This document shows positions 8,582 through 27,772 of a DNA stretch of 64,000 nt, one piece after another. The DNA is taken from the IMG/VR virus record IMGVR_UViG_3300020578_000017, positions 1 through 64,000 of that record; one strand, 5' to 3'. Every line of letters starts with the position of its first letter. The stretch's first letter is position 1. The notes under the pieces were generated by a model, which worked only from the letters and a program-made list of their open reading frames with translations, was not told the DNA's origin and ran no database searches. Made by a program: the position numbers and the translations under genes. The DNA comes from a virus.

Positions 8582-8608
8582 TGTAAAAATTACTTATTTT
8601 TCACAGTT

Positions 8609-10570: not shown

Positions 10571-11301
10571 GCGTTATCTATATGACCCTCAACTAAAGGA
10601 GGGCTATTATAGAATAATACTACAAATTCAAAAGTATAATCAAAGTTAAACGGATTTTCTGGACTTTGTGAGTAAGCAAAAGATTCAAAATTTCCATAAC
10701 ATAAAAGGTCTAAATACTTAAGCTCTACTAAATTTCTAGTGTCTATAGTTTTTCTTGTAGACGAAGCAAGTAAACTCTGATTACTTCCGGTGTTTTCTTG
10801 CTTTTTGTATGATTTTTTTATCTGAGATATAGAATTGTATTTTTCAGTTCTTTCTTCTTTTAATAAACTACTGTTTCTAAAATTAACACTATTATTTTTA
10901 TAAAGCAAAAGAAGATTCATAAAGTTTTTATAAGCAACAGTTTCATTTGCCTTTTGTCGGGTAAGTCCATCGTTTTTATGTAAAAATGCTGCAGATTTAC
11001 CTTGGGCGTTTATTATATCAAGTTCATCACCCCAGTATTGCGGTATGAACCCAGCTCTAGTATAGTTACTTGCATTTATTGCTTTTGACATAGAAATACC
11101 GAGATTGCTTGGATTTATATCTAAATAAATCTGAGAACCTGAAACATAAGATATAGTTTGATTTATAACTTTTACGCGACTAAACCTAAGAAGTTTATTT
11201 GTATCTACATAAGCTTGAGATAGCTTAAGACCAGATACGTCAAAGGCAGGTATCTTATCTACGCTAAAGTTTCCAGGAAGATCATCTTTAGAAAGTGACA
11301 T
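10567..11301 (-). CDS. Tail tube initiator/baseplate protein, paralog 2
   Basis: LDINPSNL...TRAGFIPQYWGDELDII..G...YGNFESFAYSQSPENPFNFDYTFEFVV; aligns with the adjacent upstream gene. Confidence 0.6.
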   Translation of the reverse strand: MSLSKDDLPGNFSVDKIPAFDVSGLKLSQAYVDTNKLLRFSRVKVINQTISYVSGSQIYLDINPSNLGISMSKAINASNYTRAGFIPQYWGDELDIINAQGKSAAFLHKNDGLTRQKANETVAYKNFMNLLLLYKNNSVNFRNSSLLKEERTEKYNSISQIKKSYKKQENTGSNQSLLASSTRKTIDTRNLVELKYLDLLCYGNFESFAYSQSPENPFNFDYTFEFVVLFYNSPPLVEGHIDNA

Positions 11302-11818
11302 CTGTACCGAGTACCTTAAACGTAAAGCTAAAACTCAACATAAATGGTTTATCTACTGAGTCCTCTAAAGATAAGCTTTCAAAGAAACCGTAATAGATAA
11401 ACCGATCAAAATGTAGCTCTAATGGTATGAAATCTTTAGCAAAGTTATTGTCTATCGTTATACCGCCAGAACGATATGCTTGAACAATCTTCTCTAGTCT
11501 TGTAAATGCATCACTTGTTTTACTGTCAGAAAAGCTAGCAAACCCAGTACTTTCTGTTTGAAAGCCCCCTGAAACTGCCTCTACGCCGATTGAGTCGAGT
11601 TCCTCTCCCCATAACTCATCTATCCAACCCGCATGACTACGTCGTCTTGTAATTTTAGGCTTATAGTTCATGTTCCAAGAGTTTGGATTTACATAAAAAT
11701 AAACTTTTTCTCCATCAGGTGTTTTTATGTATACTAATGAACTTTCTTGAGTTGGGTAAAAGCGAACCAACTGATTTTTTGAATCATTTGGTGCCTTACC
11801 AAAAGTACCTTCGCTCAT
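11288..11818 (-). CDS. Tail tube initiator/baseplate protein, paralog 1
   Basis: FYVNPNSW...SHAGWIDELWGEELDSI...YGFFESLSLEDSVDKPFMLSFSFTFKV; tube-like fold motifs, directly after the tape-measure cluster. Confidence 0.65.
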   Translation of the reverse strand: MSEGTFGKAPNDSKNQLVRFYPTQESSLVYIKTPDGEKVYFYVNPNSWNMNYKPKITRRRSHAGWIDELWGEELDSIGVEAVSGGFQTESTGFASFSDSKTSDAFTRLEKIVQAYRSGGITIDNNFAKDFIPLELHFDRFIYYGFFESLSLEDSVDKPFMLSFSFTFKVLGTDVTF

Positions 11819-14800
11819 TAGCTATTCTGCCTTAAGTAATATGTAACAAAGTCATTCGTTTTGTTGACTGCTACCCTGCGAATTTCTTGCTCAATCTCTT
11901 TGGCATTCCTACTAACATCAAGAATAACCTGACTATTCGTATTAGGGTCTACTTTAGTATAGATCATCTGATCTATCTCAATGTCTGCTACCAGGAATTC
12001 ACCTGATGAAAATCCTGAACTTACTATGAGATCAACTATGTTTCCAAGGTCTCGGTCTGCTGTAGGGGCATCGTATAGTCCAATAACAAGGTCTTTGTAC
12101 CCATAAGAGGAAAGACTCGCTTGATTAGGTAAAAATCTTGTTGCTGGTCCAGTAATAGCGTTAACCGGATTTGGTAAGTTTACCGGGCTTGGCATAGAAA
12201 ATGAAGGCATATCTGGAGCTTTTGCTTCTGGAGAATCTGACTTTTCTTGACTTACCGGCCTGCCTAAGAGATTATAGTTTGATGTATATGTGTATACTTG
12301 CTTTCTCTTGCTTATGCTTGCTCTTAGAGAAGAACTCTCTGCTGCGGCAGAACGTGACTCTTCCCTGAATAGCCTTTCGAATTTATGAACAGACTCAACC
12401 TCTTGTCTAGTAAGATTTTTGCTAGATTGATCTACTAAATTTACTACTTCAGGAACTCTTGCAGCTGCTCTAAAGAACCCTCTGAGCAGGGCTTTCCTTA
12501 CTTCTGGGTCTGTTGATGAACTTACTATATCCACTAAAGGTTTCATTAATGCCGGATTTATTTGCATTTTCTGCATAATGTCTGCGCCGGATGTTTTATA
12601 GTAGCTATCCTTGAACCAACCGAATACATCAAGCTTCTGTCTTATACTTGACCGCTGTACGGAGTCAGCAGCTGACCAGGATTCAGTTAGGAAATCTTTT
12701 AATATTTTTTCAGCTTGTTCTGTATTTTTAGACCTACCTGAAGATATAAGTAAAGAAAACAGAAGCACAAACTGCTGGGAGCTTATCTTATCTTTTAGTA
12801 AACTAGGAATCCTGGAATAGGCATCTAAAGCGGCAGCTTTTACTATCTCAGGATTTTTATTTTTACCAGAAGATATGGCTTGATATGTCTTATCGGACAT
12901 AGTTTTAGCATAGTTTTCATAGTACCTGGATAGTTGATCTTCATTAAGGCCAGAAAGATCCTCTAAAGGTACTTCTTTATTGGTAATTTTAGGGGTTCGA
13001 GATTCAATTTCTGGCTTTAATGCAGCAAGTTTACTATCTTTTGATATTTTTTCAAATAATAATTTTCTGTACTCATCTAACTCTTTAATTTTATCTACTA
13101 ACTCCATCCTGTCTTCTTCGGTGCGACCTCCTGACAAATATTTCCTTTTTAGACCATCTACTTCTCGTGACAAAGACGTATACTTTATAAACTGCTGGGC
13201 AACTGGCAATCCTCCTGTAAATAGAGCAGATAACTTTCCTGAAATTGAGGTAAATATACTGTTTACATCGACAAATAAAAAGTCTAGGTAGTTTTTTATG
13301 TCAGAAAACATGTCGGCAAAGTGTTGCCTCTGACTAAAAAGTTGTATTTTTAAATCTTGTGCCTCAACTTTTGCAGCGGTAGACTCGTCTATCCTCGCAC
13401 CATTAATATCTCTGATTTTTTGAAACTCAGTCACTTTTTTTATGGTGTCTAAAGGCTTAGGGCTGCTTTTCTTCAGGTTAAGTAATATTCTTAACATATC
13501 CATGCCAAATTGACCAAACTGAACACCAGCAGCTGCCTCAATAGTTCTAAGATTCTTTGACATAAAGCTGGCTAGCTTCTCCGGAGAAGACTTGAGTATG
13601 TCAATTTGAGGTAGTAGCAATTTTCTAAGTTTGACAATCCCATAGGCAAATTGAGCACTTGGATCAGACTTAAGTAAGTTTTGTAACTCTAAAGCCGCAG
13701 ACTCAAAATTAGTGCCGCTATCTTTAGAAAGATTTTCTATTGCCCTGTCTGCTAAAGACTGATTGATCGCTTCTGCTCTTTCATTGCCAACAATTCCGCC
13801 ACGATTACTCTTGAAAATTTCTTCCAAATCATTTCTGGTCACAAGCTGATTTGAAATATCAACAAAAAGGGTATCAGTGCCAGAAGAGAAAGTCTGTAGT
13901 TGATTTAAAAAGTTATCTTCCCCTTTCTTGTTCATTATCCTGGCTTTTTGAATAGTAGAGATGAGATTAATTAAACTACTTACTCTGGTATTAAGCCCGG
14001 ACATCTTACCCTGAAGACCCCTGAATGACATAAAAAGTCGATATGAGTTTAATCCACCAGTCGCTGCTACCTTAGAGAGATAAGCTAATGCCTGAGATGA
14101 TTTTTCGAAAGTAAACTGTTGACCGTCAATCATTGAGTCAAAGGCTTCAACAACTTGACCAGATTCTACGCCAAGTCCTTTTTGAAAAGTAATAACCTCA
14201 TTAATAAGCTTCATTCTGGCTTGATTAACATCTATAGCTTTTCCTGACTCGTCTATAAGCCTTCTTAAATCTATGCTAGAAGACATGGAGTCAAGTTGTT
14301 GTATTTGATCTTTGGTTAGTTTATAAATATTTGTGGAATTTTGCTCTAAGGAAATATTCGTATCTCGTAGTAAACTTACATACTCATTTTGTGCCTTATT
14401 CAACTGAGCAGCAACTAAGTCTTCCCTGAGGCCTACATTTAAACTGTACTGTAGCTGGCGTGTTCCTCTTGTCTTAAGTATTTCCTGGTTAAAGTTATGA
14501 ACTGCAGCAATGGCCTTAATCGCAAAGGCTACTAAGCCAAAAACCCCAACGTTAAGAAACATTTGTATGGGCTGTATTAAAAACTCAAGACCCTTTATAA
14601 TGTTGCTAAAGACTTTTACTAGACCTAGATATACACTTGATGCCAACGACGGCGAAGCGCCAAAATTGGTCGATTGTTTTTTTATTTTTGATGCAGTATC
14701 GATTCTTAATCTCATTTGTGACAAGTGATGTTTAGCTTTTTTTATATTAAGCTCTCTTACAGCACTGAAAGCTTTTTTAAACTCACTTACTGCTTCATTT

Positions 14801-15420
14801 GCCTCTTTAAATATTTCCTGATTTACTGAACCAACATTCTGATAAACACTTTGAGCAGTTTTAGTAAGATTTTTTGCTTTATCCTGAAGTTTTTTTAACT
14901 CAACTATAGACTCATTCAAAGATTCTTGTGATTTTGATAGCTCTTCTAAGTCTATATCTTGTAAACTTCCTTGTTCAGCAAGAGTATTAGCTAACTTTTT
15001 AAGTAAAGCATATTGATTAGCTACTTTTATACTAATCAAACCTGAAACTGAAGCGAGCTTAGCTGTATCAGCTGGATTTAATAAATCTGAAGTTTTGGCA
15101 AGCTCAAAGAAATCTTCTCTGGCTTTTCTATTCCTTATTTCCGCTTCTTTAAGGTCTCTGATGAAGTCGCCAAACAAATCATATGAACCAAAGACTTCAT
15201 TCGATAAGACCGAAATATCACGAGCTGAAGACTCAAAAGACTTTCTGATAACTTCTACAGAATCATTCAATGACTCAAGGTTAGATAAGGCGTTTCCCTG
15301 GGCTTTATACTCTGGCGAAAGATCAAATGACTCTAATGTTGTATCAAAATTCTTTAGTGATTCAAAGTATTTTTTTTGTTTAGCAGTAAAATTTTTAAGA
15401 TCTTGTATGATACTAAACAA
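11818..15420 (-). CDS. Tape-measure-like protein D (1200 aa)
   Basis: Long helical/coiled-coil protein, TTG start; hydrophobic VGVFGLVAFAIKAIAAVH followed by the shared motif NFNQEILKTRGTRQL. Confidence 0.65.
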   Translation of the reverse strand: MFSIIQDLKNFTAKQKKYFESLKNFDTTLESFDLSPEYKAQGNALSNLESLNDSVEVIRKSFESSARDISVLSNEVFGSYDLFGDFIRDLKEAEIRNRKAREDFFELAKTSDLLNPADTAKLASVSGLISIKVANQYALLKKLANTLAEQGSLQDIDLEELSKSQESLNESIVELKKLQDKAKNLTKTAQSVYQNVGSVNQEIFKEANEAVSEFKKAFSAVRELNIKKAKHHLSQMRLRIDTASKIKKQSTNFGASPSLASSVYLGLVKVFSNIIKGLEFLIQPIQMFLNVGVFGLVAFAIKAIAAVHNFNQEILKTRGTRQLQYSLNVGLREDLVAAQLNKAQNEYVSLLRDTNISLEQNSTNIYKLTKDQIQQLDSMSSSIDLRRLIDESGKAIDVNQARMKLINEVITFQKGLGVESGQVVEAFDSMIDGQQFTFEKSSQALAYLSKVAATGGLNSYRLFMSFRGLQGKMSGLNTRVSSLINLISTIQKARIMNKKGEDNFLNQLQTFSSGTDTLFVDISNQLVTRNDLEEIFKSNRGGIVGNERAEAINQSLADRAIENLSKDSGTNFESAALELQNLLKSDPSAQFAYGIVKLRKLLLPQIDILKSSPEKLASFMSKNLRTIEAAAGVQFGQFGMDMLRILLNLKKSSPKPLDTIKKVTEFQKIRDINGARIDESTAAKVEAQDLKIQLFSQRQHFADMFSDIKNYLDFLFVDVNSIFTSISGKLSALFTGGLPVAQQFIKYTSLSREVDGLKRKYLSGGRTEEDRMELVDKIKELDEYRKLLFEKISKDSKLAALKPEIESRTPKITNKEVPLEDLSGLNEDQLSRYYENYAKTMSDKTYQAISSGKNKNPEIVKAAALDAYSRIPSLLKDKISSQQFVLLFSLLISSGRSKNTEQAEKILKDFLTESWSAADSVQRSSIRQKLDVFGWFKDSYYKTSGADIMQKMQINPALMKPLVDIVSSSTDPEVRKALLRGFFRAAARVPEVVNLVDQSSKNLTRQEVESVHKFERLFREESRSAAAESSSLRASISKRKQVYTYTSNYNLLGRPVSQEKSDSPEAKAPDMPSFSMPSPVNLPNPVNAITGPATRFLPNQASLSSYGYKDLVIGLYDAPTADRDLGNIVDLIVSSGFSSGEFLVADIEIDQMIYTKVDPNTNSQVILDVSRNAKEIEQEIRRVAVNKTNDFVTYYLRQNS

Positions 15421-15422
15421 TT

Positions 15423-18400
15423 TTAGCCCCTCTTAGTGATGTTGTAATACTGGCTAATCTCATTTAGTCTAATTGAGACAGCTTGATCTGCTATGCTTGC
15501 AACATCAGTAGTGGTTTCAATAACTTTAAGTTTGACGTTTCTTACTTTATAATCAATATCACCTGTGATTGGTGCTAGTCCTGGTCGAGGAAGTCTGCTC
15601 GTTATAGAAGGTAAAGCAGATGCCCTTCCCATAACTTTCCTTTTTTCTTGATCTTCCTCTCGTTTTATGTCCCTTCGCGCCTTATCCCCTAAAGAACCAG
15701 GTAGTATAGATGCAAAACCCCTAGTTAGCCTTGCGTACCATGGCATTTCTTCTGCTTCTTTTTCTAACTGGGTAGCAGCAGTCTTTGTGGTTTCTGAATC
15801 CTTAGCTTTCCTAATTTGACCCCGCTGTTCTGCTGTTGGCTCCTTTGGCTTAGCTTGGCTACTTGCTGACTGTCTAATTGCGTTGAAGCCTATATCTAAA
15901 GCTTTTTGAACAGACTGCCGATCTCTCTGATTATAAGATAGAATATTCCTTTGAATATTTGTTCTGTTATTGTCTATGGATGACAATACTTGGTGTAGCA
16001 ATCTTTCTGGGTTTTTTTCTGTAGCAGCTTTGTCTAAAAATTCTCTTAAGATAAAAGAGAAAAGAGGCGAACTGCCAAACTTAATCCTAAGAGCCTCAAG
16101 CAATAAGCTCTTAGGATCTGTCGGATTTTTTTCTAGTAACCGTAGTAACTCTTTTTGCTCGTTTGTTAAGTTTAATACGCTATCTGGAATTTTTACTGTA
16201 ACACCATCAGATGAAACACTTCTCCTGGAAGCGGCTTGCTTTAAGGCGGGTACATTGAGAGACGCACTTGGTAGTCTTACCGCCGTACCGATATTTGAGG
16301 TAGTGGCTACCGGCGCTTGGCTACTACCAACGATAAATGACTTAAAAGCTTCTTTCATTTCTTGGTCGAGTTTTGATTTTATATAAGCAGGAAAGTCACT
16401 CTGGCCTGTTACGGTGAAATAGTTGGTGAAGTTTAGAGACTGAGAAGCTAGTGATGCTTTAACTTGAGACGGTGAAGACTGTGCTAAATCTGCCAACCTG
16501 CTCGCAGCTTCATTAAAACGTTGAATAGCTTCGGCTCTTTGTGGTCCATTAGAAGACAGTATCTTAGCTTGTTGTTCTCTCATAGTTGCTAAAGTGTCGC
16601 CAAGCTGCTTAATAAAATCAGAACCAGATAATGATTCAGTAGGTGCCGCGATGCCAAGCTTACTTGCTATCCATTTTGCAAAGGATGACTCAAGTAAACC
16701 ATGCTGTATAAAGTCAATTATATTCTCTGCTAAGCCTTGAACTTTTATAAGTAATCCTTCAATGGCGTTGGTAACACCTCTAAGAGGGGGTACCAATTGA
16801 TCGGCATTATTTGCTAAGCCTGTCTCAAGTTTTTGATACGCAGACGCATCTGATTCTGCTTGATCGTTTATGTCACCAAGAAGCATAGAAAGCAAGTCGC
16901 CTAGAGTTTTCGTAGGGTTAGCTTTAGCTAATGCAAGTAAAGACTGTCTAATAGTAAATAATGCGTTCTCATCACCCGTTATGAGCTTTGACCTTGTAAA
17001 CTGCTCCATGGTCATTTGCATAGCTCTATCAAAGCCAGGGTCAGAAGCTTTCATACTTAAAGTATTCTTGTCATATAAAGCTTGAGCTAAGATAGCTTGT
17101 TTAGTCTGTGGCGGAACAAGCTTTAAGGCGTAAGCGATATCCCTAAGATCTGCTGCTGTTGGGTTTAGTTTTTTGCTTTGAATATCTTTCAGTTTTCTTA
17201 GTGCCTGTTCTACAAATCCCTTAGCCCTCTGCTGCCCTTCAGTTCCGGTAGGCATAGCTCGAACAGTGGTCTCTAAAATGTCAACTAGTTCGGATGGCTT
17301 TTGTGCTAAAAGGCTAGCAACCATTCTTTGAGTAGAGTCGTCGTCTTGGAATGCCTGGGAAACCGCTTCTATGTAGGAAGTAACATCACGTGTCCCTAGT
17401 ATCTTTGTATCGTATAATCTAGTGAATAGAGATGCTGTAGCTTTTAAGTTGTCACCAAAAATTGGGGACTGCATGGCTAATCCCTTTGTGGCACCAAGCA
17501 ATCTAGCTACATTAATATAACTACCTTTTGTTACCCTGTTAAGGCCACCGTATAAGGACTGAAGCTGCCTCTCGCCGTACCCATATTCATTCACTAACTC
17601 CATAGAGTTTTGAGCAACTTCATCTGTGCTGATTCCCCAAGTATAGCTCAAGGCTAAACCCATATTGACAAACTTATTCAGGTTAGAAATAACCCCGGCG
17701 CCTTGTTGCAGGTTTCCTTGCAGCCTCGGTAAGTTCAATCCGGCATATTTTGCCAATTCTTCCTTTGCTTGCTCAGGTGATAGTCTAAACTTATTCTGAG
17801 TAGCATCAGCTGTTGCGTATATACTAGTAAACTCATCTTTAAGTTTGTCAAATATTGAATCTACGGTTTTAAAATCTGCTTGAGCTCGAAGGTCTAAACC
17901 TAAGTCACCCAAACTTCTTCCAGATAAAAGAGTCTTATTAAGTTCTCTGGCTTTATCGCTTGCGCTAAGCACTAAACCTAGAACAGATACAATACCACCG
18001 GCTACGGATATTCCTACGGAAGCCCACCTAGCAAAAGATGATATCTTTCCCACGACAGAAGTAAACTTTGAAAGAGAACTTTCTATTACTTTCTGGGTTG
18101 CAGATAAAGAATTATCTATATTCGACTGATCTTTTCTATCTGACGAGACTTTAGCAAGGGCTTTCCCTAAGCCTTCAGCTTTTCTGAAATGTTTTTCTGC
18201 CTCAGCTGGGTTTAAAGAAAATGCTGCTCTAACGCCATCAATGAAACCCTTAGCCGCATCCTGGGCACCTTCAAAAAATCCTTCGAAGCCTTTTTCAAGA
18301 GTTTTCTTTGCTATCTCATCCAGGCCTTTTTGATACCCAACTAGAGAAGATGACTCTCGTTTTAGGGTATCTCTAGCTTGAGCAAGTTGTGTTGTTTTTT

Positions 18401-18932
18401 TGGCTACAGAATCTTGTAATGGTCTTAGTTTATTTGCGTATTCTACATCGCTATCGAATTGTTTTCTATCTATTCTTGCAATTTCTTGTAAAGACTTTTG
18501 CAGGGATTGCTGAATAAACTCAACTTCTTTTACATTCTTATCAAGATTAGACATATCCTGTGAGGAAATTAGTCCTTGATAATAAGCTCTTTTACCTATA
18601 TTTTGAATCCTTTGAGCGTAGCTTACTGTTTCTAAAATTTGCTCTCTGATGTTCGGAAAAACTTGTACTAAATTTTTTTCATTAGCGATCTCTTCCCAGG
18701 ATTTATCTAGTTCGTCTCTTTCCTGGCTAAGTGTATTTGCTGTTTCTCTAAGTTGCGCGAAAAGCTCAGGATCATAAGCATCCTCAACATTCTTAGCTGT
18801 GTCAAATAAAAGCTTGTTGAACGTTTTAGTTTTTTCAGTTATGCTTTTAAGAAACTCTGCTGAATTAGCAAAGCCAAGTTCTAACTTAAACGATAAGCTA
18901 GAACGATTTTTTGCTTTGTTATTAGGTGCCAC
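15423..18932 (-). CDS. Tape-measure-like protein C (1169 aa)
   Basis: Helical, GTG start; GISVAGGIVSVLGLVL then ELNKTLLSGRSLGDL; ALSYTWGISTDEVA resembles a tape-measure core motif. Confidence 0.65.
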   Translation of the reverse strand: MAPNNKAKNRSSLSFKLELGFANSAEFLKSITEKTKTFNKLLFDTAKNVEDAYDPELFAQLRETANTLSQERDELDKSWEEIANEKNLVQVFPNIREQILETVSYAQRIQNIGKRAYYQGLISSQDMSNLDKNVKEVEFIQQSLQKSLQEIARIDRKQFDSDVEYANKLRPLQDSVAKKTTQLAQARDTLKRESSSLVGYQKGLDEIAKKTLEKGFEGFFEGAQDAAKGFIDGVRAAFSLNPAEAEKHFRKAEGLGKALAKVSSDRKDQSNIDNSLSATQKVIESSLSKFTSVVGKISSFARWASVGISVAGGIVSVLGLVLSASDKARELNKTLLSGRSLGDLGLDLRAQADFKTVDSIFDKLKDEFTSIYATADATQNKFRLSPEQAKEELAKYAGLNLPRLQGNLQQGAGVISNLNKFVNMGLALSYTWGISTDEVAQNSMELVNEYGYGERQLQSLYGGLNRVTKGSYINVARLLGATKGLAMQSPIFGDNLKATASLFTRLYDTKILGTRDVTSYIEAVSQAFQDDDSTQRMVASLLAQKPSELVDILETTVRAMPTGTEGQQRAKGFVEQALRKLKDIQSKKLNPTAADLRDIAYALKLVPPQTKQAILAQALYDKNTLSMKASDPGFDRAMQMTMEQFTRSKLITGDENALFTIRQSLLALAKANPTKTLGDLLSMLLGDINDQAESDASAYQKLETGLANNADQLVPPLRGVTNAIEGLLIKVQGLAENIIDFIQHGLLESSFAKWIASKLGIAAPTESLSGSDFIKQLGDTLATMREQQAKILSSNGPQRAEAIQRFNEAASRLADLAQSSPSQVKASLASQSLNFTNYFTVTGQSDFPAYIKSKLDQEMKEAFKSFIVGSSQAPVATTSNIGTAVRLPSASLNVPALKQAASRRSVSSDGVTVKIPDSVLNLTNEQKELLRLLEKNPTDPKSLLLEALRIKFGSSPLFSFILREFLDKAATEKNPERLLHQVLSSIDNNRTNIQRNILSYNQRDRQSVQKALDIGFNAIRQSASSQAKPKEPTAEQRGQIRKAKDSETTKTAATQLEKEAEEMPWYARLTRGFASILPGSLGDKARRDIKREEDQEKRKVMGRASALPSITSRLPRPGLAPITGDIDYKVRNVKLKVIETTTDVASIADQAVSIRLNEISQYYNITKRG

Positions 18933-21900
18933 TATTTCCTACGAGACGTTCCCAGACCCGGATTAAATTATTGGCGTCATTCAGGTACAAGGTCTCATAT
19001 AGAACATTCTTATAAAAGACCTGATTACTAGGTGGCGTTACATCTTGTTTAGGTGTTACAATATACCTAAACTTTCTGCCGTCCCTAGTATCTGGCAATT
19101 GCTCAAGAATAAATTGAGGAACTGAAACATCGTCTTTCTTGCCAAACGATGAATCCGTAATTCTTCCGGTTCCTACTTCAATACGAGGAGCTAATCTAGG
19201 TAACCGGGAAGACTTTACTTTTTGAGTGGAAACACGATATGTAGCTGGATTTCCTGCGGTAAACTGACTATCTAGTCTCGGAAGATTTAGTTTTCCTGTA
19301 GGAAGATTGGCCTGCCTAACTAATCCATCACTAATATTATCTGCAGTTCTTGGAATATTTGATCCAGTTCCGGAAATCTCTGATAGCCCTAATCCTACAG
19401 CTATTTTATCCTTTACTTGATCGTATGGGGTTTTTTCTCCCATGGATATGCCGTATAAAACATGCATAGCGCGGTCTATCTGATTAGTTACTTTATCTGC
19501 TGAAGACCCTTCAGGAAGATTTGGCGAAAAAGATATGTCTCTATTTCCTGCTCTATACCTACCTGAACGATTTCTAAGCACGTCTTCAACTAAATCTGGC
19601 GCAAGATGCATGGCAGCAGCTAACGATAATATATCGCCTTCACCCAAATTTAGATTTCTTTCCTTGCTAATTCTGACAATCTTTTGTATGTTACTGGCTG
19701 CTCTTTCTGCCACAAGTCTTGCTGAAGAAATAATATCCATGCATTGTTCTTTCCTAGCTTTCCACTGTTCAGGTATAAGCTGAAATACTCCCTTTGGTAA
19801 ATGTCTGGCATTTTTATCTGAGTTTGCTCGTACATTTGTGCCAGTGGCTTGTATTTTTAACGCGAAAAGTAATGCAGGGCTTATATTATACTCCGCTGCC
19901 ACGGCCATTAGTGGCCCATAAATACGTTGATCAGATGCAGTATCTAATAAAAGTTTCTTAGCTAGCTTGGTTTCTTCGCTAGACTGGTTTAATGACATCT
20001 TTGATCTATATAGAGAAGCAGAGTCTAATGGGGCTTGGCTGATGTTAAGCATTCTATCGATACCAAGTCCAGCAGAACCACCAGCTAAAAGCCCTGCTCC
20101 AGCTGCCAAAGCAATTGGACCTATTCCTAAAGTAGTAAGACCAAATATAGCACCACCTGCAATCGCTGCTCCTGCAATGGCGCCAGCGATTACAGGAGTT
20201 TGTCCTCTTGATATGGCGGATATAACACTTTGTATCCAAGAAGTTGCCTTTGACAGCAAAGACTGAGCTCTTCTGAACAAACTGCCAATCCCGGCAAATA
20301 TAGAGTTCTTTGCCTGATTAAGTGTCTTGACACCAGATGTTGTATGCTTAGCCATTCTTGCAGCAATATCAGTCATATTTTTTCTATGATCCTGGGCTTG
20401 AGGCAGCGAACTTTCTAGTTTAAATAATCCGCGATCATCAAGCTTCCTTATACCATTAGGGTCAAATCTGGCCGCTAATAGTAAATCTTTAAATTGTTCT
20501 GGTATATTTATCTGCTTGCTAGCTAAGTCTAACGCTGATCTATAGCTTAGGGCATTGATCATTACTCTATCAGCTTCAATTCCATATATTAGTTTAATTT
20601 GCCCATCTATAGCTTGCTGAAAAACTGGTAAAACAACCTGAGGAAATACCTTTGCGGACTCTAAAAGAGTAAGCATGATATCTGGATTACTTAACTGAGC
20701 CTCATAGAATCCAAGAGAGCTTAACTGTATTTGTACTTGAAGGTACTCATTTGATTGAGTGCCTAGACGATTACCTATATCTATTCTTTGTGCTTCTAAA
20801 GACTTCCTAACTGCTAGATAGCCTTCTCTCATTCTTTGTCTAAGTAATGACAAATCTGTGCTACTATCTAAATCGTAGCCTGCTAATGTAATAAGTGTAC
20901 CCATATCTTCGAATCTTTGACTTTTTACGTTATCTAAAACTGAAGATACAAAATCAGCCGCTTGACTTTCATTCAATTTTGTACTATTGGCTATTTTAGT
21001 TAAAATAGAACTATTGATCGTAAATGTGTTAATGACCCCACCAAACTTTTGAGATATTTCAATGAGGCTATTTAAAGCTAAAGAAGTATTTGTTCTTGAC
21101 TTATATGCACCAACCCTGGCCTCTTCAAAAACTTGTTCAACCTGACTCGTGGTTAACTGAGAAGAAAAAGTCAAATTGCCTACTTTAGACATTACCTCCT
21201 CAAAACTCATACCGAGCAGATGACCGTACTTCGCAGAAAGCGCTATAGGGCTGAATATATTTCTTGTATTTTCTGGATCACCGAAATCCTTAGCTGAACT
21301 AATCTCAAGATTCTTAGTTGAGCCGCCAGCCTCTCTGTAGGCTAAAATGCCCTTAACCCTATCGGTATAGTCAAGTAAAAATTCGTCTTGAACTGAGTTA
21401 AGTTGCTTGTTTAGTGAATCTATTCTCTTGAATAAGTTTTCTGAGTTTGGCTCGATTCCATATAATAACTCTTGTGTGCCAAATAGTTCTATTATGGATT
21501 TGTTTACTTCAGCGGTATAATTCATCCCTTTCAGCATAAGGTCAAGTATGAAGCTCAAATAACCAACGCTTTTACCGATGGAATTGATGCTTTTTACCAT
21601 ACTCTTAAATCCACTGGTCATAGCAGATCCTATTTTACTTAATCTATTGTCAAGCTCAAAAGCATTTTTCGCTTCTTTTTCCGGGTCTACAGATACCTTA
21701 CTTTGTAGTAGCCTTCTTCTTTCTATGGAAACAGCAGCAGAAGTAAGTGCCCGAGAAGCAATCCCCCAAATAGTACCTATTGCACTATTTAGGCCATCTC
21801 CACTATCCTGAATTGAAGTAAAACTATTTTTAACATCATTAAAGGCACTAACTGTGCTTCTAAGTGAGTAAAAGGTTCCTCTTTGTTTAAAAAGTTGCTC

Positions 21901-22497
21901 AACCGCTTCTTTGTAAACTCTATCGGTTTTAATGACCTCAACTGCTAAAGATTCAATTTTATTTGCCTCTTTAAAAAGTAATCTTACAATATTATCGTCA
22001 AGACTTGCTACAGATATAGAATCTAAATCTTCTAAAGTCTTTACGCCTAATCCTGCAAGCATACCTCTGACGACTTCAACTTGCTTTAATTGGGATTCGC
22101 AGTCAGGTATACTTGCTGGTGATAACCTGGATCTCTCGAATAGAATCTCTTCTAGTTTGTTTACAGCATAAAAAACTTGCTCAATCCGTTCTTTTACTGG
22201 TTCAAAGTTTGCATCTGGCCTTCTCTTAAAAGTAAGTAGAAGATCTTTTATAATGTACTCAATTTCAGACTTGACTTTAGATGAACTGTTTTTAAGCTTG
22301 TCTAGTAGCTTAATAAGCTGTTCTTTTTTCTTGTCGGTTGAAGAAAAATCATTTATAGCTTTTTCGGCACTTTCTATAAAAGTATCCCAGTCTTCAGTTT
22401 GTAAGTTTAGCCTTATATCAATATCTTCAACGGATAAAGACTTACCTAGAGATCTAAAGCTTTTTATGAAAGCCTCTAATTCTTCTGAGCTAGCCAC
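18922..22497 (-). CDS. Tape-measure-like protein B (1191 aa) with glycine-rich hydrophobic hairpin and degenerate SLT domain
   Basis: EVNKSIIELFGTQEL motif; VIAGAIAGAAIAGGAIFGLTTLGIGPIALAAGAGLLAGG; AVAAEYNISPALLFALKIQATG...KGVFQLIPEQW is lytic-transglycosylase-like. Confidence 0.7.
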   Translation of the reverse strand: MASSEELEAFIKSFRSLGKSLSVEDIDIRLNLQTEDWDTFIESAEKAINDFSSTDKKKEQLIKLLDKLKNSSSKVKSEIEYIIKDLLLTFKRRPDANFEPVKERIEQVFYAVNKLEEILFERSRLSPASIPDCESQLKQVEVVRGMLAGLGVKTLEDLDSISVASLDDNIVRLLFKEANKIESLAVEVIKTDRVYKEAVEQLFKQRGTFYSLRSTVSAFNDVKNSFTSIQDSGDGLNSAIGTIWGIASRALTSAAVSIERRRLLQSKVSVDPEKEAKNAFELDNRLSKIGSAMTSGFKSMVKSINSIGKSVGYLSFILDLMLKGMNYTAEVNKSIIELFGTQELLYGIEPNSENLFKRIDSLNKQLNSVQDEFLLDYTDRVKGILAYREAGGSTKNLEISSAKDFGDPENTRNIFSPIALSAKYGHLLGMSFEEVMSKVGNLTFSSQLTTSQVEQVFEEARVGAYKSRTNTSLALNSLIEISQKFGGVINTFTINSSILTKIANSTKLNESQAADFVSSVLDNVKSQRFEDMGTLITLAGYDLDSSTDLSLLRQRMREGYLAVRKSLEAQRIDIGNRLGTQSNEYLQVQIQLSSLGFYEAQLSNPDIMLTLLESAKVFPQVVLPVFQQAIDGQIKLIYGIEADRVMINALSYRSALDLASKQINIPEQFKDLLLAARFDPNGIRKLDDRGLFKLESSLPQAQDHRKNMTDIAARMAKHTTSGVKTLNQAKNSIFAGIGSLFRRAQSLLSKATSWIQSVISAISRGQTPVIAGAIAGAAIAGGAIFGLTTLGIGPIALAAGAGLLAGGSAGLGIDRMLNISQAPLDSASLYRSKMSLNQSSEETKLAKKLLLDTASDQRIYGPLMAVAAEYNISPALLFALKIQATGTNVRANSDKNARHLPKGVFQLIPEQWKARKEQCMDIISSARLVAERAASNIQKIVRISKERNLNLGEGDILSLAAAMHLAPDLVEDVLRNRSGRYRAGNRDISFSPNLPEGSSADKVTNQIDRAMHVLYGISMGEKTPYDQVKDKIAVGLGLSEISGTGSNIPRTADNISDGLVRQANLPTGKLNLPRLDSQFTAGNPATYRVSTQKVKSSRLPRLAPRIEVGTGRITDSSFGKKDDVSVPQFILEQLPDTRDGRKFRYIVTPKQDVTPPSNQVFYKNVLYETLYLNDANNLIRVWERLVGNSGT

Positions 22498-25400
22498 TGC
22501 TTACGCCTTTTTCTACAGTTGGCCTATAATTCATCATTATGTAGTCAATAAACTTAGAAGAATCCTTAATGTATACGTCCATATTGTACTGTTCTATAAG
22601 AATAGATTTTCCATCGGAAAGTTGGCTTAAATGCTGGGCAAACTTTTCTCTAAAACTCTCATCAAGTCCTACTACGCTCTCATGCCGAATGGATTCTCGT
22701 TGAGAGTGCTGAAGCCTTTTCGCAATTAAAGAAAACTGCTTTACCTGTTCTTTTAGCTTTTGTCTATGGGCCATCTGTTTCAGGTATTGTTCTTTTGACT
22801 CAACTCTTCTGATTTGACCCCTGACAACATCGAGTATTACTTCGGGGTTAACTTCAATCTTAAAGTCTCTAAAAAAATTAAGAATGAGTGCGGTTCTTTC
22901 TTTGCCGTTACTTTGAATTATTCGCTTTAGCTGAGGAAGGTCATATCTCTCAAGAAAGTTTTCCGACTTTTTAACGAAATCCCCATAAGACATATTGGTA
23001 TTTATAGCTGTTTCCGTGGCATAAGCTTTTTCAAACAACCTTTGAGAATAAGTATCTTCCTGTATTGTATTTTGGTAAGCTCTTACGGCAGCTCTTTTAT
23101 TTCCCTCTGGGGCCTTAGCAGACTCTACTCCAGTTTTCATAGTTCTCACTAAAGAACGTAGTCTACTCCAGTCAAACCCTACAGGGTCAGTTCTTACTTC
23201 GCCTAGTCTTTTACCGGAAGGAAGAACTACCCTTTCTCTTCCCCTTGCAACTTCTTCATGCGAAATAACATCCTCTAAGCTAAGACCATATCGGGTCATA
23301 AGTGAAGAAACTAATCGAGCAACAGCCATATACTGAACTTCAGTGTAGTCACTTTTTCCATATCTCTCGATTTCAATGCCTAACGCTGCAGGATTTATTG
23401 ACTCACCCATTTTAAATCCCTCAGAAAGTAAACTGCTTCCTGGACCTATTGCACCGCCGTGAGAGGCTATCTTTTTTTCATCGACCATGTAATAAATTTT
23501 ACCGTCACGACCAACTATATAATGAGCTGATGTTTTTCCTGGTCCACCAGTAAACTCACTTATAGCGGAAGAAGCTGTTCCCTCAGTAGAGTGGAGGACA
23601 ATCTTACGCAAACGCTGTATTTCGCCTTTATTGCTTTTCCCTAACTTGTAAGCAGGAACCTTTCCACGATAATCAACAACTTGACCAGGAGATATGCTAG
23701 TTAAGCTAGGAGAAGTTCCGGTACTTTCTAAAGCGGGTGCTGGAACTTTTTTTGCGTTGGTTATAAAGTTCCATAAAGTCTGACCTACACTGTAAAGTTG
23801 CATAAATGTACTATGTATCTTAGAACCAATAAACCTTAGTGACTTATCTAAGGACTCAGCAACAGTTATAGTCTTTAAGTTCATACTCAAAGCGGACTTC
23901 ATAACCAACTGCTGAATATTTTCTGCCGTTAATTGCGGAGGACTTGGCCTTCCTTTATACTTAGATGTATATCTTTTTGCTGTAATAAGCTCAGAAATAC
24001 TTGAACCAAGACCAAGCGTGGTTGTTGCTTCTTCAATAAGTGTTCTTTTTGATAAGCTTGGGGGCCTGTCCCCCATTCTTTCGTTATATATTACTCTATA
24101 TCTTGCAGCTACTGCATCATCTAAAAGATCAAAACTTAAATCCGGAAACATTCTTATCAAATTCGTAGCAAAGCTAGATATTTGAGTAAGATTACTTCTG
24201 TCAGAACCTACTAGTTTCCTTTGTCTCGTAGCATAATCTAACATGTACTGAAGCTCGGTAACTTTAGCTAAAGCAGCGTCTTTGTCAGCTTTATTGATTA
24301 CAAACTTAGCCTTTCTGCTTTCTTCTTTTATTTGCTCACGGAGCGTAGATGCAGCTTTTGTTAAAAACTTAGAAACTGCTCTTGGGTTTTCTGAAAAAAG
24401 AGGGCCAAGTACACCCATAATTTGTGAAGTGCTATACCCCATAACTTCTTGTAACACATTACTTAATAAATCACGACCTTGATCTGCGCTCAGTGCTCTT
24501 TTTCTAACTAAACTGTTTAAGATCGTACCAAACTGCCTTGACCTGTTCGTAAAGTAAGAAAATGAGTCTGATAGAGAAATAACATTTGCTAAAAATGCTT
24601 TTGGACTTACTGGGCTGCTTGATACAATATTTGCTAGATTCCTGAAAGAATCTGTGGTTGTGCTAAATAAATCACCGAAGCTAAACCGCCAGTCCCCAAT
24701 AGCCCTACCTAGCTCTGATGGGTCAGACTGAAATACCTGAGATATTGCATAGTAATCTTCTAGGGGTCCTTTAAGATTTGCAATTTGCCCTGTTCTTATG
24801 TTGGCAATCATATTTGGCTTCAGGTTTACTCTACCAAACTCGGCTTCCAAATCACGTATGGTTAAACCTGATTTGATTAAAGGGTCAAGTAAGCTTATAT
24901 ATTTTTCTGGATCCAGGTTTAGCTGTATGGAAAAACTATCTTGATTAACAACTGAGCCATCTGGTCGTGTTATTGTATATGAAAAAGATTTATCGTTAAG
25001 GTAATCGTACAAAGTCTGGTAAAATGAGCTTAATGCTGCCTCTTTATTGGGAGCTTTAGGGTCTACCATACTCAACTGATTGATCGTGCCAAACAGGTTA
25101 ATTATACTCTGATTGAAGCTTATCTGCTGCTGCCTACCGGCAATTATATATTGAGCAGCTTTTGCCAGGACCATAAGTAAAAACCCATAAGGACCGACTA
25201 TTTTACCCATTGAGTGAATAATGCTGGTAGATACCTGAGAAACTGAATTAAAATCTTTGTTAGCATTGAACTCTTTAGCTAGAACATTTTTTGAGCTTTT
25301 TGCAAAAAACTGACCAGAATACTTACCAGACCTTATATCTTGGGCTCTTTTTTTTAAAATAGAATCAAATAATCTATTTGAGCCTTGAAGTATTGTGTTA

Positions 25401-26080
25401 ACGACACTCGGTAGCCCATTTCCGGTTGAAAAAAAGTTAAACATTCCGGTTCCAGATTTTTTTAAATCCATAAAAGCAGATTCTAATGGAGTTAAAAATG
25501 CATCATACCCATCTAGTGATTTCTCTTTAAACAAAGTAGAGTTGTAGGTCGCTTGAGCAATCGCTAACATTTTAGGGTCTAAACCTTTGGTGAAGTTAGT
25601 AGACTCTTTCCTAAGTAAAGAAAGTAAGTTTTTTAAGTTATTGATCTCTTCTTTTGTGAAATCACTTTCTTCTTTACTTGATTTTATTGCTTGAATCTGA
25701 CGAGATATATTTTTTATCGAGATACGTCTATCATTTATTTCTTTTACTACAGAAGGTGGAACTTTATTTGGTGCTAAAAGACTAAAGCTGTTTACTGATT
25801 TCCAAACTAAATTTGGTATCTCAGTAAGCTTCCTTACCTCAGTATCTATTTGTTTTTTTTGTGAGTAAGTTTGTATTTCAGGTTGCGATAACACATAGCC
25901 ACCGCCTAACTTGAACCTCTCTGTCTTAGAACTCACATTAGGAAACTTTTGCTTTACTAAAGTGTCAAGGCTTCTCTCGAAGTTGGCTACCTGTTTTAGG
26001 CTTCTATCCGATCCTAGGCCATCCCAGTCTATTTTAAGCTCTCGCTCAAGGAAAGCGTAGTCGTCGCCAAATTCTATCAT
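22490..26080 (-). CDS. Tape-measure-like protein A (1196 aa) with Amidase_2 (N-acetylmuramoyl-L-alanine amidase) domain
   Basis: SFNQSIINLFGTINQL motif. Amidase motifs IVLHSTEG, SAHYIVGRDGKI, ASHGG, GIEIE, VISHEEVA, RTDPVGFDW (His/His/Asp zinc ligands and catalytic Glu apparently present). Confidence 0.75.
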   Translation of the reverse strand: MIEFGDDYAFLERELKIDWDGLGSDRSLKQVANFERSLDTLVKQKFPNVSSKTERFKLGGGYVLSQPEIQTYSQKKQIDTEVRKLTEIPNLVWKSVNSFSLLAPNKVPPSVVKEINDRRISIKNISRQIQAIKSSKEESDFTKEEINNLKNLLSLLRKESTNFTKGLDPKMLAIAQATYNSTLFKEKSLDGYDAFLTPLESAFMDLKKSGTGMFNFFSTGNGLPSVVNTILQGSNRLFDSILKKRAQDIRSGKYSGQFFAKSSKNVLAKEFNANKDFNSVSQVSTSIIHSMGKIVGPYGFLLMVLAKAAQYIIAGRQQQISFNQSIINLFGTINQLSMVDPKAPNKEAALSSFYQTLYDYLNDKSFSYTITRPDGSVVNQDSFSIQLNLDPEKYISLLDPLIKSGLTIRDLEAEFGRVNLKPNMIANIRTGQIANLKGPLEDYYAISQVFQSDPSELGRAIGDWRFSFGDLFSTTTDSFRNLANIVSSSPVSPKAFLANVISLSDSFSYFTNRSRQFGTILNSLVRKRALSADQGRDLLSNVLQEVMGYSTSQIMGVLGPLFSENPRAVSKFLTKAASTLREQIKEESRKAKFVINKADKDAALAKVTELQYMLDYATRQRKLVGSDRSNLTQISSFATNLIRMFPDLSFDLLDDAVAARYRVIYNERMGDRPPSLSKRTLIEEATTTLGLGSSISELITAKRYTSKYKGRPSPPQLTAENIQQLVMKSALSMNLKTITVAESLDKSLRFIGSKIHSTFMQLYSVGQTLWNFITNAKKVPAPALESTGTSPSLTSISPGQVVDYRGKVPAYKLGKSNKGEIQRLRKIVLHSTEGTASSAISEFTGGPGKTSAHYIVGRDGKIYYMVDEKKIASHGGAIGPGSSLLSEGFKMGESINPAALGIEIERYGKSDYTEVQYMAVARLVSSLMTRYGLSLEDVISHEEVARGRERVVLPSGKRLGEVRTDPVGFDWSRLRSLVRTMKTGVESAKAPEGNKRAAVRAYQNTIQEDTYSQRLFEKAYATETAINTNMSYGDFVKKSENFLERYDLPQLKRIIQSNGKERTALILNFFRDFKIEVNPEVILDVVRGQIRRVESKEQYLKQMAHRQKLKEQVKQFSLIAKRLQHSQRESIRHESVVGLDESFREKFAQHLSQLSDGKSILIEQYNMDVYIKDSSKFIDYIMMNYRPTVEKGVSSG

Positions 26081-27258
26081 TTAGGACGATTCCTGGGATT
26101 GTTTACAGGTAAGCCTCCGCGCTTTATCTCCCCTGAGAAATTGCCAGGATTTACATTTACTGGAAGTATTGTTGATCTTGAGGTGTTTGAAACTGGTAGT
26201 ATTGATGAATATAAATCTTTAGGAACTTCATACTCTTTATCTATTTGGTCAAGCTCATCTTTAGTGACGCCAAGAACTGTAATGATCAACTCTCTTCTTT
26301 GATCAAAATCAGTGATGTCTTGCATCTTATTTTCATCAAAAATAGTAAATGGTTCAGCAACGGAAGATTTTTCTAGCTCTGAAGCTTTAGCTTTTATAGC
26401 TTCTATCTTACGTTCTCTTTCTTCTCGCTTAAACGTTCTATACCCTTCTAATGCGTTATCTCTGGCGCTATCCATTGCCAATTCGTGAGCATCTTTTTTA
26501 TTGTTAACAACAACATCTAAATCATATAAAAGCTTTTTGTACTCATCTTCTCTAGAAGAGTTGGATAATGGATTGACCAAGGAGTCTGAACTGGTGGAAA
26601 TACCTTTTGCCCGGTCCATGACTTCTTTTCTATAGTCATCTTCTTTTGACCGTTGGTCAGTGACTTCTTTGTCAATCTTTTCAACAGCTTTTCCGTTTAA
26701 AAAAGCACCCATCCAACGGACATAACTCCATTGAACATCAAAACCTTGTCTGTCATCTTCAGCCCGGTTGTAGCTTATCCACTGAACCTGCATCGAGTTA
26801 AGAGGTAGCTGGTCAGTTCCTTGCAATCCAGTAACTGTGGTGGAGTTTAGAGTAGTATTTAAATATGCTTTCCAATAAACCCTGGACTGAGGCTCATAGC
26901 AGTATGCCTCTAGCTTACCAAAGGCATCTGTAATCCTACGATTAAAGGTCAAACACTTATGTATTAATCTACTTATTGCTTTTGATGGCCATTTTCGTAA
27001 GGAGTTAAATAACTTTAAAGCGCTATCATCTCTATCTTTTAAGAATAAAACGCCATCGATTTGAAGTACTGAATAAGCCAAGTACCAGCAATCGTAAATT
27101 ATCTCTTTAGCGGGGTGTTTGCTGGGTGTTCGATCTTTTATTCGCTGAAACTCTAAATCGTTAAGTGATTTAAGAACAAAGTCAAAACCATTGAAGTGTA
27201 AGCTCTCAGTAAGAAAACCCTTAAAAAGAAGCTGCTCTACGTCCTCGTAATGGTTCAA
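26077..27258 (-). CDS. Putative tail assembly chaperone 2
   Basis: Located between tube/chaperone and tape measure; the N-terminus (LLFKGFLTESLHFNGFDFVLKSLNDLE...LAYSVLQIDG) resembles the upstream chaperone. Confidence 0.5.
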   Translation of the reverse strand: MNHYEDVEQLLFKGFLTESLHFNGFDFVLKSLNDLEFQRIKDRTPSKHPAKEIIYDCWYLAYSVLQIDGVLFLKDRDDSALKLFNSLRKWPSKAISRLIHKCLTFNRRITDAFGKLEAYCYEPQSRVYWKAYLNTTLNSTTVTGLQGTDQLPLNSMQVQWISYNRAEDDRQGFDVQWSYVRWMGAFLNGKAVEKIDKEVTDQRSKEDDYRKEVMDRAKGISTSSDSLVNPLSNSSREDEYKKLLYDLDVVVNNKKDAHELAMDSARDNALEGYRTFKREERERKIEAIKAKASELEKSSVAEPFTIFDENKMQDITDFDQRRELIITVLGVTKDELDQIDKEYEVPKDLYSSILPVSNTSRSTILPVNVNPGNFSGEIKRGGLPVNNPRNRPK

Positions 27259-27286: not shown

Positions 27287-27772
27287 CTAAGCTGTTTGTT
27301 GCTGCTCGTCTACAGACTGAGCAAGTTGAACTTGAGCAATAAGCTCTTGAACAATCTCTTGTTCTGTCTTATCTGGATTAATGTCCCTCTCAAGCTCTGA
27401 AACCAACTCGGCATAGGCAAAGAATATTCTATCTATGACAGCCTGGCCCCATTTACCAACCAAGTCACGGAGGTACTTTAGACGCTCAACCTTTACAGCT
27501 ACACCATCAATTTGTTCGCCAGTTTCAAAAAACTCTACGTTATCAATTCTGTAACCATCAATAGCCTTTATGGACCTGCATACAGTCTCAAGCTTCATTT
27601 TAAAAATGAAAGCCATCTTAACTTCAGAAGAAAGATAGTCTTGAATATCACTTTCTTCTTCCGCACCGAGTATGCCAATCGTGACTTTTAGTTTACCGAT
27701 CTGTACGTCTGTCTCACGGTAGAAGTCACGACTGGCCTCTTCGATTTTAGATAAAACTGTATTTAGGTCCAT
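27287..27772 (-). CDS. Putative tail assembly chaperone 1
   Basis: 161 aa directly after the tube gene; ETVCRSIKAIDG...LVGKWGQAVIDRIFFAY chaperone-like pattern. Confidence 0.55.
   Translation of the reverse strand: MDLNTVLSKIEEASRDFYRETDVQIGKLKVTIGILGAEEESDIQDYLSSEVKMAFIFKMKLETVCRSIKAIDGYRIDNVEFFETGEQIDGVAVKVERLKYLRDLVGKWGQAVIDRIFFAYAELVSELERDINPDKTEQEIVQELIAQVQLAQSVDEQQQTA

Follow-up and report, generated by a model that had tools for sequence, protein, structure and literature searches.

The DNA considered here, referred to below as the window, is the first 64 kb (64,000 nucleotides) of the IMG/VR virus record IMGVR_UViG_3300020578_000017, which has 116,449 bases and whose source is a large uncultured jumbo myophage from lake water. 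Almost every gene in the window lies on the minus strand, including a run of four long genes that we read as paralogous tape-measure protein (TMP) genes. From 5' to 3' on that strand these are copy A (22490-26080, 1196 aa, start codon ATG), copy B (18922-22497, 1191 aa, GTG), copy C (15423-18932, 1169 aa, GTG) and copy D (11818-15420, 1200 aa, TTG). Each is an open reading frame (ORF) that is matched by a profile of the conserved family core, made from an alignment of eight rows (A2), with E values of 2e-143, 5e-136, 3e-150 and 8e-135, respectively. A and B overlap by 8 nt, B and C overlap by 11 nt, and a 2-nt spacer separates C from D; at the outer junctions, the upstream gene of 393 aa overlaps A by 4 nt and D overlaps the next gene by 1 nt. 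These coordinates and junctions bear out the original prediction of four genes of 1196, 1191, 1169 and 1200 aa, overlapping or abutting one another, in the tape-measure slot. A purine-rich run stands 6-14 nt 5' of every start. Graded expression from the series of start codons ATG/GTG/GTG/TTG was considered and rejected, as the pattern is not kept in a second genome that carries the array (G001, described below), where the starts are ATG/ATG/TTG-or-ATG/ATG.

Contigs from four other lake-water runs cover the array, most of the pieces at 99% identity or higher, and span every gene junction with no indels. Because contigs from other runs bridge every junction in this way, the array is not an assembly artefact. 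Among the sequencing runs listed for it, none is of RNA. A search of this genome with the A2 profile found no fifth family member elsewhere. Beyond the window, at C1:76892-90131, there is a second block of four large minus-strand ORFs (1032, 1193, 1126 and 1028 aa), none of which matches the TMP core profile.

When only the window is searched, BLASTP links A to B (E 5e-6, residues 201-369 versus 217-378) and gives no link between A and C or between A and D. Genome G001, an IMG/VR record of 95,201 bases located through its sheath protein (57% sheath identity), carries four ORFs in the same slot and context, with lengths of 1450, 1179, 1207 and 1237 aa. In an all-against-all BLASTP of these four proteins and the four from the window, all eight are connected collinearly over approximately residues 200-590. 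The E values are 2e-41 between C and D of G001, 2e-23 between the two C proteins, 8e-18 between A and B of G001, 2e-17 between the two A proteins, 4e-7 between the two D proteins and 4e-4 between B and D of G001. Used alone as a query against G001, copy D finds no match at E 1e-3, though the A2 profile detects all four G001 copies. Profile similarity among the copies, on which the original prediction depended, was found by hhalign of the ortholog profiles for every adjacent pair (A-B 97.4%, E 1e-11; B-C 95.4%, E 2e-8; C-D 99.5%, E 4e-22), and the remaining pairs are weaker (A-C 84.6%, B-D 47%, A-D 10%). The four genes are therefore true paralogs.

The conserved core, as delimited by alignment A2, occupies 23972-25522 in A (residues 187-703), 20467-21897 in B, 16941-18284 in C and 13471-14802 in D, all on the minus strand. 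In the first 200 residues of the proteins, 28-35% of residues are charged and 1-4% are proline. A shared short motif sits at residue 322 in A, 331 in B, 331 in C and 310 in D, on the C-terminal side of a hydrophobic segment. This segment meets the Kyte-Doolittle threshold in C and D, where it forms a transmembrane (TM)-like helix at residues 304-322 and 289-307, respectively, but not in A or B, so that of the proposed hydrophobic helix followed by a shared motif, the motif stands for all four copies and the TM-like segment for two.

The four-copy state is set apart by its relatives. An alignment of the large clade of huge phages that carry this family recovered 46 IMG/VR loci, on contigs of up to 529 kb and with several near-duplicate pairs among them. 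Within 10 kb on either side, each of the 46 loci holds exactly one family member, 42 of them complete ORFs of 1081-1252 aa and four cut by contig ends. The A2 profile scores 44 of these loci at 1e-16 to 1e-34, and the near-identical L040 and L041 are matched by the A3 profile only. The five whole records examined, which span 372-529 kb and include three rated 100% complete, likewise hold exactly one member each, and a single member occurs in the uncultured 485-kb phage LR745208 (1127 aa) and in phage Tunturi_5. The large-clade phages (the 46 loci and LR745208) are thus like the phage of the window in family, slot, flanking genes and TMP length, and unlike it in having one copy per locus and per whole record and in lacking any Pfam enzyme domain in the 32 members scanned. 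The expectation of a single tape-measure gene proved right for this family. Because related huge phages hold exactly one member in the same slot, the array is a derived expansion and the single copy is ancestral.

By sequence, the array lineage is present in three genomes: the window, G001 and L061. The last is a Joint Genome Institute (JGI) contig with a sheath gene, genes of 216, 161 and 390 aa, and copies A (1188 aa), B (1116 aa) and C (1143 aa), after which the contig ends. Further sets are suggested by proteins assigned to contigs of equal size, the shared contig being itself inferred from the size: A, B and D (32,970 bp), B, C and D (13,498 bp), A, B and D (75,273 bp) and A and C (15,073 bp). 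An A and a B also stand under two neighbouring NCBI accessions. The copies are only about 20% identical and all are intact.

An IQ-TREE phylogeny of 24 cores from the array lineage, with 12 from the large clade as outgroup, places all 24 in one clade, with a support of 95 by the Shimodaira-Hasegawa-like approximate likelihood ratio test (SH-aLRT). Within this clade an AB group (99) separates from a CD group (97). Support is 100 for each of the classes A, B, C and D, to which the four copies of the window belong. G001 fits this scheme in part: its copy A falls with class A (87), its copy B has no firm place inside the AB group, and its copies C and D both fall with class C (88). The first duplication, between AB and CD, is clear on this tree, and the second round may have happened once or twice. 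The array is old and has been kept.

The length of these proteins is also under constraint. Among the 148 listed family proteins (P0006-P0153) the median is 1140 aa, with an interquartile range of 1089-1188 aa, and 118 of the 148 fall within 1050-1249 aa. The copies of the window, at 1169-1200 aa, lie close to the large-clade median of 1176 aa, and the lengths in the array genomes are 1116-1237 aa apart from one copy with a C-terminal add-on. The genes around the array differ far more from their large-clade medians: 217 versus 244 aa for the tube-like protein, 393 versus 428 aa for the gene upstream of A, 176 versus 255 aa and 244 versus 580 aa for the two genes downstream of D, and 653 versus 1171 aa and 1003 versus 733 aa for the two genes of the hub region. 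Between the lineages the neighbours thus differ in length by 8-58%, and the TMP by at most 2%. The length constraint proposed in the original prediction is therefore upheld by the family median, by the single-copy relatives and by the variable neighbours, as a property of the family as a whole; the matching of the copies within a genome is not clearly tighter. For that comparison there are six sets, three of them inferred from equal-sized contigs, which are too few to separate within-genome matching from family-wide constraint.

The C-terminal parts, by comparison, are class-specific and conserved among orthologs. That of copy A is common to its orthologs P0005, P0013, P0165, P0021 and P0028 and contains an Amidase_2 domain at residues 823-948 (23237-23614, minus strand). 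The domain passes the Pfam gathering threshold over most of its extent (PF01510, E 3.2e-23, 82.9 bits against a cut-off of 26, profile positions 4-125 of 131), also matches PHROG amidase and endolysin families, and recurs in P0013 and, weakly, in P0021. In copy B, a lytic-transglycosylase-like domain lies at approximately residues 858-1039 (19381-19926, minus strand); it was recognised from an AlphaFold2 model of the C-terminal 492 aa and a structure match; at the sequence level, Pfam, NCBIfam and the PDB gave no match to this rear domain. The model is confident only over much of its residues 160-340. Its mean predicted local distance difference test (pLDDT) score is 47 overall, and block means in the lytic-transglycosylase-like stretch lie mostly between 50 and 92 but fall to 33-49 around model residues 186-219. 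The best structural match is MltC (4c5f_A; Z 9.6, root-mean-square deviation 4.1, 125 residues aligned), the sole chain with Z of at least 8, followed by Slt, MltE, MltF and Slt70 at Z 6.7-7.5. Judged from this model, copy B appears to carry a lytic transglycosylase or goose-lysozyme-like fold. The orthologs P0019 and P0105 have a glutamate where copy B of the window has an alanine. Going by the known motif of the family, this glutamate would be the catalytic residue of lytic transglycosylases. Ahead of the domain, copy B has a Gly/Ala-rich hydrophobic stretch at residues 769-813 (20059-20193, minus strand), with Kyte-Doolittle means over 19 residues of 1.67-2.07.

The enzymes differ from genome to genome. 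Two other class B proteins have M23 motifs in place of the lytic-transglycosylase-like domain, and in G001 copy B has a Glucosaminidase domain and copy A a weak M23 match together with Peptidase_M15_4. The G001 copy A (L004:13051-17403, 1450 aa) consists of a body of about 1225 aa with the usual end motif at 1196-1223, followed by an add-on of about 225 aa that bears the Peptidase_M15_4 domain. Copies C and D of the window also have class-specific rear regions, with no recognisable enzyme; for C, no enzyme domain was found in Pfam, PHROGs or NCBIfam. A model of the C-terminal 501 aa of copy D (mean pLDDT 50) shows helices, a disordered Pro-rich stretch and then two strands and a helix. Different C-terminal payloads had been predicted for all four copies, and a distinct region is indeed present in each, but an enzyme can be named for A and B only. 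At the C-terminus, the four copies share one kind of strand and helix motif. The short C-terminus of this form that had been predicted is seen in both AlphaFold models, those of B and D, at low confidence. A complex prediction with the C-terminal 110 residues of each copy returned a score of 0.02, or "no answer", and is evidence neither way.

Upstream of the array on the same strand lie the genes for the tail sheath (28594-31512, 972 aa), a tube-like protein (27835-28488, 217 aa), a tail-assembly-chaperone-like protein (27287-27772, 161 aa) and the conserved protein of 393 aa directly upstream of A (26077-27258). The sheath matches phrog_279 (E 2.8e-14) and, by tblastn, sheaths annotated in phages that include Tunturi_5 and phage G. 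The tube-like protein, through a profile built from 37 homologs, matches phage G gp179 (96.7%) and gp180 (97.9%), virion proteins encoded directly after the sheath. The chaperone-like profile matches phage G gp181 (92.6%) and Tunturi_5 gp258 (93.9%), both annotated as tail assembly chaperones; in nine related loci the homologs of this gene are ORFs of 348-424 aa, and in phage G the record gives a frameshifted long form. The 393-aa gene belongs to no Pfam or PHROG family, and in 44 of the 47 related loci a homolog of it immediately precedes the lone family member. Downstream of D, also on the minus strand, are two small tail genes of 176 and 244 aa (10567-11818), whose profiles both match Tunturi_5 gp255/gp256 (97-98%) and phage G gp184, which directly follow the TMP gene of their respective phages. 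As they match the same proteins, the two small genes look like a paralog pair. The baseplate or hub region follows (5570-10570, minus strand), with genes of 653 and 1003 aa. By profile, the 653-aa gene is linked to Tunturi_5 gp254, annotated "tail protein with lysin activity" (100%, E 4e-41), as well as to phage G gp185 (97.5%), and the 1003-aa protein has a weak match to the baseplate hub family phrog_430 (E 2e-4). Among the 47 related loci, homologs were found of the tube-like protein in 44, the 393-aa protein in 44, the 176-aa, 244-aa and 653-aa proteins in 45 each and the 1003-aa protein in 42.

The order of sheath, tube-like, chaperone-like and 393-aa genes, array, two small tail genes and hub-region genes is collinear with phage G gp178-gp185, where the TMP is gp183, and with the Tunturi_5 tail block gp260-gp254, where the TMP is gp257; in Tunturi_5 the sheath gene is about 60 kb away from this block. 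Judged by gene order, the array occupies the TMP slot of a contractile-tail module, between the tube and chaperone genes and the baseplate-hub genes, and the assignment of this slot in the original prediction is confirmed by synteny with both phages. The 653-aa hub-region gene (8609-10570) falls short of its homologs in single-copy relatives (median 1171 aa) by about 500 aa, and no Pfam domain accounts for the missing length. A transfer of wall enzymes from this gene onto the TMP copies was considered and rejected, as no Pfam domain was found in four long large-clade homologs, in the G001 homolog or in Tunturi_5 gp254. On the 3' side of the hub genes, a very large ORF at 2-5377 (more than 1792 aa, with a weak Big-like match) runs off the end of the window; in G001 there is one of 3380 aa at contig positions 1550-11692.

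The family is large. Run against 1.84 billion cluster representatives, the A2 profile matched 907 at E of at most 1e-3, 524 at 1e-10 or below and 20 at 1e-30 or below. The nearest annotated-phage relatives, by tblastn with the sheath, are Tunturi_5, LR745208 and phage G. In LR745208 the A2 profile finds one ORF, the 1127-aa member, and in Tunturi_5 it weakly matches (E 5.2e-4) gp257, annotated "tail length tape measure protein"; in phage G it gave no matches. The link to gp257 is also seen by hhalign with the large-clade alignment of 32 rows (88%, E 2.9e-6, 247 columns). PF10145 PhageMin_Tail is found in three proteins (E 0.03, 0.0055 and 0.0012; 14.6-19.2 bits, under the cut-off of 33.2) and PF20155 TMP_3 at E 0.006 (16.8 bits, under the cut-off of 41), with three of these matches on the family core, and PF06791 TMP_2 matches one of 32 proteins at a sub-threshold E of 0.0039. 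Equally below threshold are phrog_167, "tail length tape measure protein", on copy B (E 1.1e-3, residues 46-832) and phrog_11265 (E 2.7e-4, residues 132-208, N-terminal of the core), and NCBIfam gave no TMP family match. The four genes are accordingly not filed as members of PF10145, PF20155, PF06791, PHROG 167 or PHROG 11265. TM-like segments occur in B, C and D, and the models of the last 500 or so residues of B and D are largely helical. No cultured-phage record matched the whole array by megablast or copy B by tblastn, and a related-locus search of IMG/VR with copy B or the class C alignment found no relatives. Nothing meaningful came from a PDB sequence search, where the best E values were 0.076 for the core profile and 0.26 for the C-terminal part of B. 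In the ESM Atlas the C-terminal parts of C and D reached unnamed clusters only, and TMP-named clusters at 0.76-0.83 are a lead only. The assignment of the family to the TMPs draws on synteny and on the weak profile link to gp257.

Several known phages share part of this arrangement. In Tunturi_5 (PP885688.1; PMC11924767), gp257 belongs to the same family by profile, has the same neighbours (a chaperone-like gene upstream, and gp255/gp256 and gp254 downstream) and is 1106 aa long. It differs from the array in being a single gene without class-specific modules and in its weak link to the copies of the window. The tail of this phage has a measured length of 167.0 nm (PMC11924767), which compares with 166 nm for 1106 residues at 0.15 nm each; the same rule of 0.15 nm per residue has been applied to phiCbK (PMC3556154). 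Bacillus phage G resembles the window in the order of its module (sheath, two virion proteins, chaperones, TMP, baseplate genes), and its gp183, of 2893 aa, is described as a virion protein by mass spectrometry with LytD glucosaminidase and M23 domains (PMC8570332). These are the enzyme kinds found on G001 copies B and A. In phage G, however, one long TMP has both enzymes and measures a 450-nm tail, while here the enzymes are spread over copies of equal length.

More than one TMP-like gene has been noted in Staphylococcus jumbo phages. The preprint on MarsHill mentions "Two potential tape measure proteins"; both are helical and have TM segments, and wall-degrading domains are present in one of them (10.1101/2020.12.14.422802). 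Phage DC4 has two adjacent TMP-like genes of near-equal length, 1962 and 1990 aa, neither of whose products is apparently among the 15 proteins mapped there by liquid chromatography-mass spectrometry (PMC10638138). Unlike the array, these are two genes rather than four, in an unrelated AR9-like group, and they are apparently not discussed as a mixed ruler. Our literature search for multi-copy TMP arrays found no description of arrays larger than two genes.

Wall enzymes built into a ruler are also known from single TMPs. Mycobacteriophage TM4 reportedly has a TMP with an embedded peptidoglycan-hydrolase motif. In phiCbK, gp95 is described as a TMP with an embedded CHAP wall enzyme (PMC3556154). 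TMPs of the phiCbK type are like the array in having a wall enzyme within the ruler that is thought to act after ejection. They are unlike it in being one gene and one polypeptide, so that added domains change the single ruler; here the modules are on separate paralogs.

The reading that we favour, with somewhat better than even confidence, is that the four genes are paralogous TMPs which arose by serial tandem duplication, which share one chassis and one length while each has its own module, and which act as one ruler in a mixed bundle in the tail lumen. A single TMP gene of about 1150 aa would have given rise to an AB type and a CD type, and these to the four genes. All would have kept the chassis, that is, the charged N-terminal region, the hydrophobic helix with its F/L-N-K/Q-x-I/L-L motif, the helical core, the Pro-rich linker, a plug of two strands and a helix, and the ancestral length, while residues of approximately 750-1050 diverged into four class-specific modules. 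The module of A would be a MurNAc (N-acetylmuramoyl)-L-Ala amidase, that of B a lytic-transglycosylase-like domain with a glycine-rich hydrophobic stretch, and that of D is modelled as helical. The four genes are probably translationally coupled and their products made together; all four could attach by C-terminal plugs of one kind and run alongside one another in the tube lumen, where their common length would set one tail length, predicted at about 175-180 nm. Contraction would then eject the bundle and bring several cell-wall and membrane activities to bear at once. Tape-measure action, the entry of all four proteins into the tail and a single mixed bundle are parts of this hypothesis, and the array suggests a tail core built of several different proteins. 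Of the original prediction, the slot, the paralogy and the length constraint are thus supported, and the hetero-oligomer or alternative cores that it offered remain hypotheses. The stricter form, a defined hetero-oligomeric TMP of four equal-length chains in which the shared ruler role is split from per-chain cargo (amidase, transglycosylase and two membrane-directed or unknown modules), we put forward tentatively and with more doubt than belief.

A number of points weigh against this reading. We infer the presence of the four proteins in virions, and a role for them in tail length, for a phage that is uncultured, and the gp257 annotation to which the family is tied is, as far as we could see, apparently computational itself. 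No curated TMP family in Pfam, PHROG or NCBIfam was reached at its threshold. The lengths within a genome are not clearly tighter than the family spread, so that mutual matching of the copies is inseparable from ancestral constraint. The transglycosylase-like enzyme of copy B may be inactive here, because an alanine replaces the conserved glutamate of its orthologs. In solved tails the tube is described as spanned by 3-6 TMP copies (PMC8570332), and by analogy with such bundles four kinds of chain would have no simple fit to a threefold lumen. Given the placements of the G001 copies, the four classes may not all be orthologous across the lineage, and independent duplications or gene conversion are possible.

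Other readings of the array were weighed beside the mixed bundle. Each paralog might instead form a homo-oligomer, with one kind per tail, so that the virions of one burst would fall into as many as four sub-populations, alike in tail length but differently equipped to breach the envelope, as a form of bet-hedging against variable host walls. Equal length would be needed for this too, the same strand and helix end in all four proteins could let them compete for one docking site, and the variation of the class B payload by genome (lytic-transglycosylase-like, M23 or glucosaminidase) is as expected of host-facing parts. We nevertheless think such alternative cores unlikely, as the copies are coupled in one unit and would all be present together at assembly, nothing was seen that would enforce self-sorting, and tails with only C or only D would have no wall-cutting module unless it were supplied elsewhere. 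Somewhat less likely again is that one copy measures and the others are ejected proteins derived from the TMP, carried in the lumen or in the hub cavity, that cut the wall or form membrane channels. The restriction of enzymes to A and B fits this possibility, as do the single-copy relatives with no enzyme domain in 32 scanned and the Staphylococcus jumbo phages, where one gene of the TMP-like pair has a tail-lysin annotation. If a protein no longer had to act as a ruler, however, its length would be expected to drift, and all classes remain at 1116-1237 aa despite identities of about 20%, with the core and the C-terminal motif kept in every copy.

The four proteins could also be imagined end to end, measuring a very long tail; their sum of 4756 aa would correspond to about 700 nm, and phage G, a distant relative by sheath, has a 450-nm tail with a 2893-aa TMP (PMC8570332). 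This is very improbable, since each copy keeps both ancestral ends rather than specialised head-to-tail joints, and the tube, chaperone and hub genes are shared with relatives that have one TMP copy of this length. That the copies are redundant or decaying duplicates without separate function deserves hardly any credence. Only the fact of duplication speaks for it, while all copies are intact in three genomes at about 20% identity, the classes are stable with a conserved module in each, and no indels were seen in the other runs.

The tape measure is the textbook example of a molecular ruler encoded by a single gene. Four diverged copies at one length, beside dozens of one-copy relatives, amount to a natural experiment, and the four-copy state with its clean single-copy outgroup is a good test case. 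The system bears on how the ruler is read, on how many chains occupy the tube lumen and on how envelope-breaching enzymes can be added without changing tail length, and it offers concrete targets for virion proteomics and cryo-electron microscopy of jumbo-phage tails. It also calls for some caution in annotation, as "the longest tail gene" of a phage may be several genes. If the mixed bundle is real, a four-chain tape measure would make the phage tail functionally similar to an injection device with several effectors.

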